IMG/VR virus record: IMGVR_UViG_2711768005_000011
Reading direction: 5' to 3' (one strand)
DNA: 4,346 nucleotides
DNA from: a virus
Lineage: Duplodnaviria > Heunggongvirae > Uroviricota > Caudoviricetes
Shown: positions 106 to 4,346 of the stretch, one piece after another
How the letters are laid out: every line of letters begins with the position of its first letter
How positions within the stretch are numbered: the first letter of the stretch is position 1
The notes under the pieces: model-generated
What the model saw: only the letters and a program-made list of their open reading frames with translations
What the model was told of the DNA's origin: nothing
Databases searched by the model: none
Translations under genes and position numbers: made by a program

Positions 106-394
106 ATTTGCGCTGGGAAGTGGTGCGCAAGTTGCGTCTAGTGGCGATATTTATGGTTCAGTGTGGGAAAACAACTGGTTAAGCACATGGCTGCATAATC
201 ATGTCGTTCGGGATATTCGTCTTGGCAGCATTGAATATAAAAACGTATGGCGCGACTACGGCTTTGGCGATGCGTCAGGTTATGTTTTAACAGCCGCAAT
301 TAACAGCAATGCGGATGATATTGTCGACACTGTTGCCAGAAGGCCAATTCAGAAATTGATTGGGGGAATATGGTACAACGTGGGGAGTGTTTAA
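106..394 (+). pseudogene. Tail-fibre distal (C-terminal) cassette fragment with no start of its own
   Basis: Track ORF 80..394 ends ...[18 protein letters not shown]. This C-terminus matches that of the minus-strand cassette ([18 protein letters not shown]). TAA at 392..394 sits 1 nt before the tfa ATG at 396. Upstream, the same frame hits TAG at 14..16 and TGA at 5..7, and 17..105 appears to be IS-derived, so no constant N-terminal part is attached. GTG at 80 has its SD-like GGAAGGAG abutting it, so it is an unlikely real start. Confidence 0.6.
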
Positions 395-395
395 G

Positions 396-923
396 ATGAT
401 GCACCTGAAAAATATTAAGGCCGGGAATCCGAAAACACCGGAACAATACCAGCTAACTAAAAAAGCGGGCGTGGTATGGCTCTTTTGCGAAGATGGCAAA
501 AACTGGTATGAGGAACAAAAGAATTTTCAGCCAGACACCATAAAAATTGCTTACGATGAGAACAACATCATCGTTGCTGTCAGTAAAGACGTTTCAACTA
601 TTAATCCTGAAGGGCTAAGCATAGTTGAAGTTCCTGATATTACGGCAAATCGTCACGCAGACAATAACGGAAAATGGATGTTTCTGGATGGTAAAGTAGT
701 AAAGAGGGAATATACAGAACAGGAACTGCAACAACAGGCCGAATCACAAAAGGCCGCATTGCTTTCCGAAGCTGAATCAGTCATCCAGCCGCTGGAACGA
801 GCTGTCAGGCTGAATATGGCAACAGACGAGGAACGCACACGACTGGAAGCATGGGAACGCTACAGTGTTCTGGTCAGCCGTGTGGATACGGCAAATCCTG
901 AATGGCCACAAAAGCCTGAATAA
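396..923 (+). CDS. Tail-fibre assembly protein (Mu U / e14 Tfa-type chaperone), intact, 175 aa
   Basis: ATG at 396 with GGGGAG at 382..387. Protein [22 protein letters not shown] ... [25 protein letters not shown]. Translationally coupled to the preceding fibre cassette. About two-thirds of the protein is closely similar to the convergent paralogue at 952..1485. Confidence 0.85.
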
Positions 924-951: not shown

Positions 952-1485
952 TCATTCTGGTTGTTCGGGAAACGTTACTGGCAGGCTGGAGGTGTCTGTG
1001 GATTCAACCTTCTGCGCATAGAGCATCCACTCGGTTAATTTTTGTTTATTCTCATCGGAAATGATGCCCAGCTGTAGCTGAGAGTCCCACAGCTGGGTTT
1101 TATCCCTGACGAGCTGCAGCAGGCTCTGCTTTTCATTTTCCGCTTGTTGCCTTTGCTCTTCCTCGGTATAAGTTCGCTTTATCACCGCACCATCTTTGAA
1201 CATCCAGTTGCCCGAAATATCAGCCCGGCGATTTGCTGTAATATCAGGCAACTCAACGACACTTAAACCTTCTGGATTAATTGCTGATACATCCTTGTCT
1301 ATAGCAATAATTATTCCCTCAACTGTGTAAGCCAGTTTTATTGTATCCTCCTGAAAGTTTTTTAATTCCTCATGCCAATTTTTTCCATCTTCGGACCATA
1401 ACCAGATAACATCAAAATTCTTTGTTAGCTGGTATTGTTCAACGGTTTTTGGATTACCTGCGACAATGTTTTTTAAATGCTGCAT
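952..1485 (-). CDS. Tail-fibre assembly protein (Tfa/U' paralogue), intact, 177 aa
   Basis: Track [25 protein letters not shown] ... [30 protein letters not shown] at 1485..1483 lies 2 nt after the TAA (1490..1488) that ends the minus-strand fibre cassette. The N-terminal two-thirds is closely similar to the + strand Tfa. Confidence 0.85.
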
Positions 1486-1487
1486 GA

Positions 1488-1786
1488 TTATACCTGCGAT
1501 ACGTTATACCATGTTCCGTTAATTAACTTTTGTATTGGTCTGAATACTGCCGGATCATCACCATCGACTTCACCGATAATACCAAGCCCCGTGATTACAT
1601 GGCCTGATTTTTCATACATCACGCCTTTCTTCATGGTCTAAACAACTCGTGTGCCAAGTCTGACATCTCTCACATAGCGGGAATCAAAGTTACCGTAATC
1701 CGAGGGATTAACACGTCCCGTAATATTTATGGTTTTATTACTTTGAATGCTTCCGGAGACAAAGCGCATAACATGGACGTTATTAG
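1488..1786 (-). pseudogene. Side tail-fibre alternative cassette, C-terminal portion (downstream of the IS5 insertion), with an in-frame amber codon
   Basis: Same frame as the fibre segment on the other side of IS5 once IS5 and one TTAG copy are removed. Reads NNVHVMRFVSGSIQSNKTINITGRVNPSDYGNFDSRYVRDVRLGTRVV, then TAG (1640..1638), then [49 protein letters not shown], then TAA at 1490..1488. The conserved C-terminal motif lies beyond the amber codon. Confidence 0.7.
1783..1786. repeat. IS5 target-site duplication, left copy (TTAG)
   Basis: TTAG immediately left of the IS5 inverted repeat; identical TTAG at 2983..2986. IS5 is known to make 4-bp duplications at YTAR-type targets. Confidence 0.85.
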
Positions 1787-2982
<1,196 letters not shown>

Positions 2983-2986
2983 TTAG
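2983..2986. repeat. IS5 target-site duplication, right copy (TTAG)
   Basis: TTAG immediately right of the IS5 right inverted repeat; matches 1783..1786. Confidence 0.85.
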
Positions 2987-3614
2987 CATAAACATCCAGA
3001 TTACCATCGCCTTTTTGTTTAAAGCCCGTGTCATTATCACCCAATACAATCGAATTACCGCCAAGAGCACTGGATGTTCCGATACCCAGTGCACCATTCA
3101 GTTGACCACCAGATAACGGCAGTGCACCAACATCTCCTGCTGAAGGTTTTCTGGTGGTGTAAAATTCGGACCAGTCGGCTTCAAAACCATAACCATCACG
3201 GGCTGAACGATAAAAAATACCGCCATTTTTATAATTAATCCGAAACTGAGCTGCAGGACAACTTCCTTCTCCCATATAAAAATGAATAATTAACGTTGAT
3301 GCACCACTAATAGTTGCGTTATAGGCTCCGCTACTCCAGTTCCATCCAACTGCTTTATCATTCGCAACGGTGCTTCCTGTTTTCCCTAAGGCAAACGCAC
3401 CAACATGACTTGCTTTTAATGTGATATCGGAGGAACCATCAAAAGCCACATTGCTTATTTTCCTGGCAGTTTTTAATTTTGCAGCTGTAGAAGCATTGCC
3501 GGATAGTTCACCAGAAAGGCCACCGCTGAATGTTTGTCGATTAGTCCAGGTATTCGCTGTACTGAGTAACGGTATTTTCTCCCCGCTTGTGCCGAGTTCT
3601 CGTAAACCGAGGTT
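2983..3614 (-). pseudogene. Side tail-fibre alternative cassette, N-terminal portion of the variable region (from the crossover site to the IS5 junction)
   Basis: Minus-strand frame opens inside the crossover site (in-frame TAA at 3617..3615) and reads NLGLRELGTSGEKIPLLSTANTWTNRQTFSGG ... FDGSSDITLKAS ... GDGNLDVYA up to the IS5 junction. Track ORF 2874..3449 is the lower part of this frame; its last ~37 codons are IS5 sequence. It resembles lambdoid side tail-fibre (Stf) C-terminal regions as I recall them. Confidence 0.75.
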
Positions 3615-3622
3615 TTAGATAA
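3597..3622. other. Gin/Pin/Cin/Hin-family recombination crossover site (gix/pix-like), right boundary of the invertible segment
   Basis: TTCTCGTAAACC GA GGTTTTAGATAA is a 26-bp imperfect palindrome with the AAACC-NN-GGTTT core characteristic of serine-invertase crossover sites. It lies ~55 bp upstream of the invertase start, and the minus-strand fibre cassette frame begins in its inner half. Confidence 0.8.
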
Positions 3623-3676
3623 TGGCGGTTTCTGGCCTGCATGGCATGATTTGTGCTTTTGGACGGGAGATTCAGC

Positions 3677-3916
3677 GTGCTGATTGGCTATGTAAGGGTA
3701 TCAACAAATGACCAGAATACAGACCTGCAACGAAACGCTCTTGTTTGTGCAGGATATGAACAAATATTTGAAGATAAATTAAGCGGAACAAGGACAGGCC
3801 GACCTGGATTAAAACGTGCTTTAAAGCGCCTTCAAAAAGGTGACGCACTGGTTGTCTGAAAACTGGACTGACTGGGGCACTGTATGCGGCATCTTGTCGT
3901 GCTGGTGGTGGAAGCC
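3677..3916 (+). pseudogene. pin: Serine DNA invertase (Pin/Gin/Cin/Hin family), N-terminal ~60 codons intact then disrupted by stops
   Basis: GTG at 3677 with GGGAGA at 3663..3668. Reads VLIGYVRVSTNDQNTDLQRNALVCAGYEQIFEDKLSGTRTGRPGLKRALKRLQKGDALVV, a recognisable invertase N-terminus with the catalytic-Ser region. Then TGA at 3857..3859 where W is expected, KLD, TGA at 3869..3871 where R is expected, and LGHCMRHLVVLV. A full-length invertase would be ~190 aa. The ATG at 3653 used by the ORF track has no SD and is probably not the start. Confidence 0.8.
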
Positions 3917-4003
3917 TAGAAAAAGTATCGGGTGTTGCTGAACCGTGTTGATACATCAACTGCACCTGATATTGAGTGGCCTACGAACCCTGTCAGGGAG
4001 TAA
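3917..4003 (+). pseudogene. Remnant of the 3' end of a tail-fibre assembly (tfa) gene, in frame with the invertase fragment
   Basis: Same frame as the pin fragment reads EA, TAG (3917..3919), then KKYRVLLNRVDTSTAPDIEWPTNPVRE and TAA (4001..4003). This parallels the C-terminus of the intact Tfa in this window ([25 protein letters not shown]), with the conserved Trp codon replaced by TAG. Confidence 0.5.
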
Positions 4004-4017
4004 TCATTGGGATTATG

Positions 4018-4050
4018 CCGCAGCACGTCTTAAGCAAGAACGTGCTGCGG
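4018..4050. terminator. GC-rich stem-loop, possible terminator between convergent transcription units
   Basis: CCGCAGCACGT (4018..4028) pairs perfectly with ACGTGCTGCGG (4040..4050) around an 11-nt loop. It lies between the tfa-like remnant stop (4003) and the stop of the convergent minus-strand ORF (4058..4060). A T-run at 4061..4066 follows on the + strand, but 10 nt from the stem. Confidence 0.4.
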
Positions 4051-4060
4051 TTGGATGCTA

Positions 4061-4346
4061 TTTTTTCCCTGAAGCGGAAAACATTACTACAGTACCTTGA
4101 ACCTTGGTTTTAACATTCTCGAAATGCTCTGAGAGTATATGTGTTAAGCCTTCTTCGGAATCTTTTGTGTTTGAAAAGATGCCTTTCTGATTGTAAATGC
4201 GCATCAGTTTTTGACCGAAGCTATTGTGCACAACTCCATCGCCAAGAATTGTGGCTCCGTATAGAGTTCCATCGTCAGTTAAGGCCTGCGCCGCATTGCG
4301 TATTACACAGCTTTTTGTAGATATATTTCCAGGCAGGCAGTGAAGA
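4061..4346 (-). CDS. Hypothetical protein, C-terminal ~95 codons (5' end beyond the right edge of the window)
   Basis: Uninterrupted minus-strand frame from the window edge to TAG at 4060..4058: LHCLPGNISTKSCVIRNAAQALTDDGTLYGATILGDGVVHNSFGQKLMRIYNQKGIFSNTKDSEEGLTHILSEHFENVKTKVQGTVVMFSASGKK. The other two minus frames are closed. No family recognised. Not in the ORF track because no start codon lies in the window. Confidence 0.55.

Follow-up and report, generated by a model that had tools for sequence, protein, structure and literature searches.

The closest described relatives of the locus studied here are the invertible segments G of Mu (invertase gene gin), C of P1 (cin) and P of e14 (pin). 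In these segments, two opposed modules, each made up of a variable fiber cassette and a tfa gene, lie between inverted sites of about 30 nt, next to a serine invertase gene, and a constant N-terminal part of the fiber is fused alternately to either cassette. The prophage analyzed here has the same arrangement, with a constant part of 621 aa and with the adjacent serine invertase gene present, but as a pseudogene. It differs further in that the fiber is a lambdoid Stf-type fiber of a defective prophage with an amber codon in one cassette, and in that the segment in the contig under study cannot invert, one crossover site having been lost to IS600.

The cassette itself has relatives in other settings. 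The gpH fibers of Yersinia phage L-413C and P2-like relatives (Peduovirus) are 93-95% identical to the fiber of the window over the last 102 residues (95% for L-413C gpH, in a stretch that includes the 49 codons downstream of the amber codon), and the tfa/gpG gene directly follows, as it does here. These fibers are intact, carry Gln (CAG) where the window has TAG, and have other N-terminal parts and another context, that of a P2-like myovirus versus a lambdoid prophage. Mu S, considered together with Tfa (PDB 5YVQ), is a more distant relative: SRYVRDVRLGT and an RP[IV]-type stretch at the C-terminus are shared, and the likeness covers the C-terminal domain only (last 76 residues of the window's fiber aligned to Mu S residues 424-502; E 5e-17). 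Mu Tfa binds the distal fiber and ensures its correct folding and trimerization (PMC9608196). An orthologous fiber, intact and 442 aa in length (WP_425350119.1), is found in Escherichia coli NCTC86, in a prophage integrated at the same place, next to ompW/trpA; its cassette shows ~99% DNA identity to that of the window, with the same tfa neighbors and the same truncated pin and methyltransferase genes, whereas the NCTC86 region has CAG in place of TAG and lacks both ISKpn26 and IS600.

The comparisons reported below point to a plain nonsense mutation in one of the two alternative fiber cassettes of a defective Shigella sonnei prophage, a reading to which we assign a probability of roughly 0.93.

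Organization of the tail-fiber segment

The window, i.e., the whole stretch of 4,346 nucleotides that was analyzed and to which all coordinates refer unless noted otherwise, represents the invertible end of a side tail-fiber gene of the lambdoid type, and the element that hosts it is a defective lambdoid prophage of S. sonnei integrated beside trpA/ompW. Two opposed modules, each a cassette with its own tfa gene, occupy positions 106..923 (plus strand) and 3596..952 (minus strand). The plus-strand module retains the last ~96 codons of cassette Sv (106..394), truncated at the 5' end, with homology to the 918-aa fiber of S. sonnei 53G beginning at 106, and an intact tfa (396..923). The minus-strand module comprises cassette Sv', which carries the amber codon (1638..1640), and an intact tfa' (952..1485) encoding a tail-fiber assembly chaperone of 177 aa; both chaperone genes were assigned by the Pfam domain Caudo_TAP and the NCTC86 annotation. 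The proximal part of Sv' extends from the crossover site to an insertion element (2987..3596; ~99% identity to NCTC86, Pfam gp37_C). Beyond the element lie a piece of 146 nt that reaches the amber codon (1641..1786) and the orphaned end of the cassette, i.e., the last 49 codons and a TAA (1488..1637), recognized by protein identity to the C-terminus of the NCTC86 fiber; all of these pieces are on the minus strand. The original prediction let the minus-strand fiber frame run into the TAG. The frame is the same up to that codon, reading YVRDVRLGTRVV immediately upstream of the TAG at 1640..1638, but it is not uninterrupted, since an IS5-family element splits it; in a reconstruction with the IS and one copy of TTAG removed, 2987..3596 joins 1786..1488 in frame. 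At ~3165..3175 (minus strand, ...EFYTTRKPS...), the S. sonnei cassette also lacks one of the Thr codons of NCTC86 (FYTTRKPS versus FYTTTRKPS), and it shows a few further substitutions, N to K and G to S; all of these changes keep the frame and have no obvious consequence.

A pix/gix-like crossover site at the Sv'/pin boundary (3597..3626), corresponding to a 30-nt inverted-repeat arm in 53G, is the sole remaining one of the two inverted repeats in the window. In 53G (locus L005), the arm at 5209-5238 of that locus is paired with the arm at 8129-8158, both 30 nt long and 2890 nt apart, and the repeats flank two opposed modules of a variable cassette plus tfa. The breakpoint of the inversion between loci maps to 3602..3626 of the window. 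The 53G fiber (918 aa) ends in the plus-strand cassette; in AR-0426 and at locus L012 the segment is flipped, so that the fiber gene joins its constant part to the amber cassette, and the fiber ORF of AR-0426 stops at the TAG after 875 aa. The 918-aa and 875-aa fibers have an identical prefix of 621 aa and diverge at the crossover site, and read-through of the flipped amber cassette would give 925 aa. The 2.9-kb segment is thus found in both orientations among S. sonnei genomes (L005 versus L009/L012) and, with its paired inverted sites in 53G and two opposed cassettes with tfa genes, conforms to the Din type. Opposite orientations were also seen in a single assembly, at loci L007 and L008 near the two ends of the chromosome-sized contig UGZB01000001.1, which suggests that the cultured population was mixed.

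The adjacent serine invertase gene of the pin/Gin type is a pseudogene (3677..3867, plus strand), as judged against an intact 199-aa recombinase and from the Pfam Resolvase match of its 60-aa product. After ~60 residues it carries in-frame TGA at Trp and Arg codons, and homology is gone past 3867. With these in-frame stops the pin homologue is not a functional invertase gene, so inversion, if it still goes on in S. sonnei, would depend on an invertase provided in trans. In the annotation of NCTC86, this recombinase is incomplete at the C-terminus in the same way; therefore, the truncation of pin predates the S. sonnei amber codon. Past pin there is a remnant of a third tail-fiber assembly gene (3909..4052), ~90% identical to the other copies, followed by the 3' part of a gene for a class I SAM-dependent methyltransferase (4058..4346, minus strand), inside which the contig stops, with nothing in the window to account for the break.

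Comparison of the amber codon with homologous fibers

Reading the minus strand directly, we found the TAG at 1640..1638 and, in the same frame after it, 49 sense codons up to a TAA at 1490..1488, as had been proposed, and the translations confirm that the last 18 residues of this extension resemble the C-terminus of the plus-strand cassette. The chance of 49 open codons after a stop is estimated at ~1 in 10, i.e., (61/64)^49. Such a stretch alone is common by chance, and therefore the case for an amber codon must rest on homology. The homology evidence that the amber codon lies inside the original coding sequence is decisive. In a stretch of 81 nt around the codon, the sole mismatch between NCTC86 and the window is CAG versus TAG, in agreement with the substitution suggested in the original prediction; downstream of the changed base, to past the start of tfa', the two DNA sequences are identical, and the 49 downstream codons encode the NCTC86 protein and end in the same TAA before tfa'. 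Accordingly, the 147 nt located 3' of the TAG show no added decay relative to NCTC86. The spacing between stop and chaperone gene had been described as 2 nt in both cassettes. This is correct for the minus strand, where TAA is followed by 2 nt (TC) and the ATG of tfa' (1485..1483), but not for the plus-strand cassette, where the stop at 392..394 is 1 nt away from the first ATG (396) and 4 nt away from the second (399).

Beyond NCTC86, the position of the amber codon is occupied, in the fibers of three functional phages, by CAG (L-413C gpH and phage P37) or CAA (vB_YpM_39). Among the 28 database homologues retaining the GTRVV motif, the residue is Q in 27 and K in one; the underlying search of a large protein database returned 42 proteins, mostly fragments, which sufficed for this count but makes for a narrow survey. 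The 49 downstream codons are 93-100% identical at the protein level to the C-termini of functional fibers, and they are also covered by the Mu S alignment. The locus thus combines a sense codon one base away at the aligned position of the orthologue with in-frame likeness of the downstream sequence to the end of intact relatives, both of which are expected of a pseudogene created by a nonsense mutation; a single C-to-T transition converted CAG (Gln) to TAG.

We also looked for fibers that naturally end at this position, and found no independent one among the 28 homologues with the GTRVV motif. The lone protein that ends straight after the motif is a 63-aa 'bacteriophage tail protein [Shigella sonnei]' (P0032), the sequence of which starts inside the inserted element and is thus the window's own product. 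On the basis of these homologues, we therefore rejected a natural gene end at the TAG.

The distribution of the codon in E. coli was surveyed with an 81-nt query centered on the TAG in 5,426 complete E. coli genomes. Full-length matches were obtained in 133 of these genomes, the best five matches being exactly one base off each, and the exact 81-nt sequence of the TAG allele was found in none of the 5,426. A very specific 32-mer, with either TAG or NNN at the codon, gave no exact match in species-representative genomes. This collection presumably files S. sonnei under E. coli, and thus contains no S. sonnei representative; together with the specificity of the 32-mer, this makes the scans of representative genomes uninformative.

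Occurrence of the TAG allele in Shigella sonnei

The TAG is present in all 10 S. sonnei chromosomes read, two codons before the ATG of a 48-aa ORF. Three of these chromosomes are those of 53G, AR-0426 and 866, which represent genotypes 2.8.2, 2.1 and 3.1.1 according to the literature, and the allele looks fixed across at least these genotypes. A look-up of the 48-aa ORF by exact sequence gave 2201 blocks of the assembly collection and at least 1000 contigs, the source records calling it 'putative tail fiber protein (GpH) [Shigella sonnei]'. The window is a short draft contig of 4.3 kb with a repeat at its end, and a sequencing or assembly error, with CAG as the true codon and TAG as an artefact of the short contig, could be suspected on these grounds. 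Conversely, the same TAG in 10 independently assembled chromosomes and the resulting ORF on at least 1000 contigs make such an error very unlikely, and we give it practically no weight. This reproducibility, which is expected of a genuine nonsense mutation, draws on other assemblies and not on the reads of the isolate.

The undecayed sequence downstream of the TAG is what is expected for a recent mutation in S. sonnei, which we take to be a young clone. However, continued constraint would also fit the absence of decay, and it is in this respect that a functional split gene has to be considered, i.e., an 875-aa body and a 48-aa tip produced by termination and reinitiation at the ATG and assembling with Tfa' into a working tip. 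The ATG lies 3 nt past the TAG, with one codon between, and gene callers start the 48-aa ORF there, at 1634; moreover, the amber cassette is in the expressed orientation in some S. sonnei genomes. Nevertheless, the Met is ancestral (homologues have TMQKG, TMKKG or LMARG), hence it has not arisen for reinitiation, no Shine-Dalgarno-like sequence was seen upstream of this ATG, split homologues were found in no case outside S. sonnei, and the prophage is otherwise decaying. A working split fiber is thus highly unlikely, and the plain nonsense mutation is the reading that we retain for the 48-aa ORF.

Insertion elements and relative age of the lesions

Two insertion sequences affect the segment in this contig. 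ISKpn26, an element of the IS5 family (1196 bp; 1787..2982, plus strand; 100% identity to annotated copies), lies inside Sv' and encodes a transposase of 326 aa (1855..2835). It is flanked by a target duplication, TTAG, at 1783..1786 and 2983..2986, and interrupts the amber cassette, leaving 146 nt between itself and the TAG downstream. IS5 proper was ruled out as the inserted element, the identity being ~91% to the E. coli IS5 copy compared to 100% to ISKpn26. ISKpn26 is absent at all 10 other S. sonnei loci compared, and thus its insertion is a later event than the amber mutation. The fact that the short contig assembles through the element suggests that this isolate acquired it recently and possibly in a single copy.

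The other element is represented by an IS600 end at the contig break (1..105, minus strand; 99% identity to annotated IS600). Its presence leaves only the last ~96 codons of the plus-strand cassette and has cost the segment its other crossover site; neither this left-hand site nor the constant fiber part is found in the window at the location seen in 53G. The same IS600 junction is common to loci L003, L004, L006, L010 and L011, and is not present in 53G, AR-0426 or L012. The genes past IS600 vary by locus (lysis genes, Lom), with lysis-region genes lying beyond the IS at L003, which suggests IS600-mediated rearrangements of the prophage. The amber cassette adjoins pin, which is the silent orientation, and with the second crossover site lost to IS600 it is locked in this state. 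The amber cassette in this contig is thus affected by at least four lesions (the amber codon, ISKpn26, IS600 and the dead pin), and the amber codon predates both IS insertions of the window.

This state of the cassette bears directly on the possibility of suppression. The original prediction held that an amber-suppressor host would read through the TAG, which stands as a statement on decoding by the ribosome but does not carry over to the gene, as the window contains no complete fiber gene to be read through: the cassette is split by ISKpn26, silent and devoid of the constant N-terminal part. Suppressor read-through is therefore moot in this contig. Suppression could be relevant only in those S. 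sonnei strains in which the cassette is flipped on and the 875-aa fiber ends at the amber codon. Programmed or host-dependent read-through, by a suppressor tRNA or through codon context, would make production of the fiber conditional, and it is well established that a supE-type (glnV44) suppressor inserts Gln at amber codons, exactly the ancestral residue here. Conversely, a stop at this position was found in no homologue outside the S. sonnei clone, so that the conservation of the stop expected of programmed read-through among homologues that keep the extension is not seen; the window contains no tRNA genes, and the gene is also broken by ISKpn26. We consider read-through of this kind exceedingly improbable. 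A nonsense mutation without such rescue, followed by the two insertions, is the history that we prefer.

Discussion

In the mechanism that we propose, a single transition introduced an amber codon into one of the two alternative C-terminal cassettes of a side tail-fiber gene, in the distal end, which binds the receptor and depends on the chaperone; these cassettes belong to an invertible segment of the Mu-G, P1-C and e14-P type. Translation would then stop short of the last 49 residues, among them the conserved 13-residue end. Homology to Mu S places the missing residues in the C-terminal domain, whose folding and trimerization are assisted by the Tfa chaperone. The C-terminal homology, combined with a Caudo_TAP gene immediately downstream, is what is found in Tfa-dependent tips of the Mu S and P2 gpH type. 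Removal of the final 49 residues should thus prevent formation of the C-terminal domain, and the truncated fiber is probably non-functional, as judged from the loss of the Mu S-like domain and the role of Tfa. It is conceivable, with very low probability, that a flipped-on cassette still yields some assembled fiber, either from the 875-aa body and a reinitiated 48-aa tip or by low-level read-through. If either were true, the receptor-binding tip in S. sonnei would be naturally split or its expression conditional. The nonsense mutation that we favor is ordinary pseudogene formation in a decaying prophage and involves no new mechanism.

Accordingly, the amber codon adds a further inactivating lesion to a prophage that is degraded anyway, and has little biological weight in itself. 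S. sonnei is a pathogen in which the expansion of IS elements and the decay of genes are already familiar. The 48-aa ORF that thousands of S. sonnei assemblies list as 'GpH' is, under the same reading, a pseudogene fragment and not a gene. Any reuse of the amber cassette, e.g., for retargeting tailocins or phages, calls for restoring the CAG codon. The TAG allele is apparently confined to S. sonnei in the data searched, and could therefore serve as a marker of this lineage.
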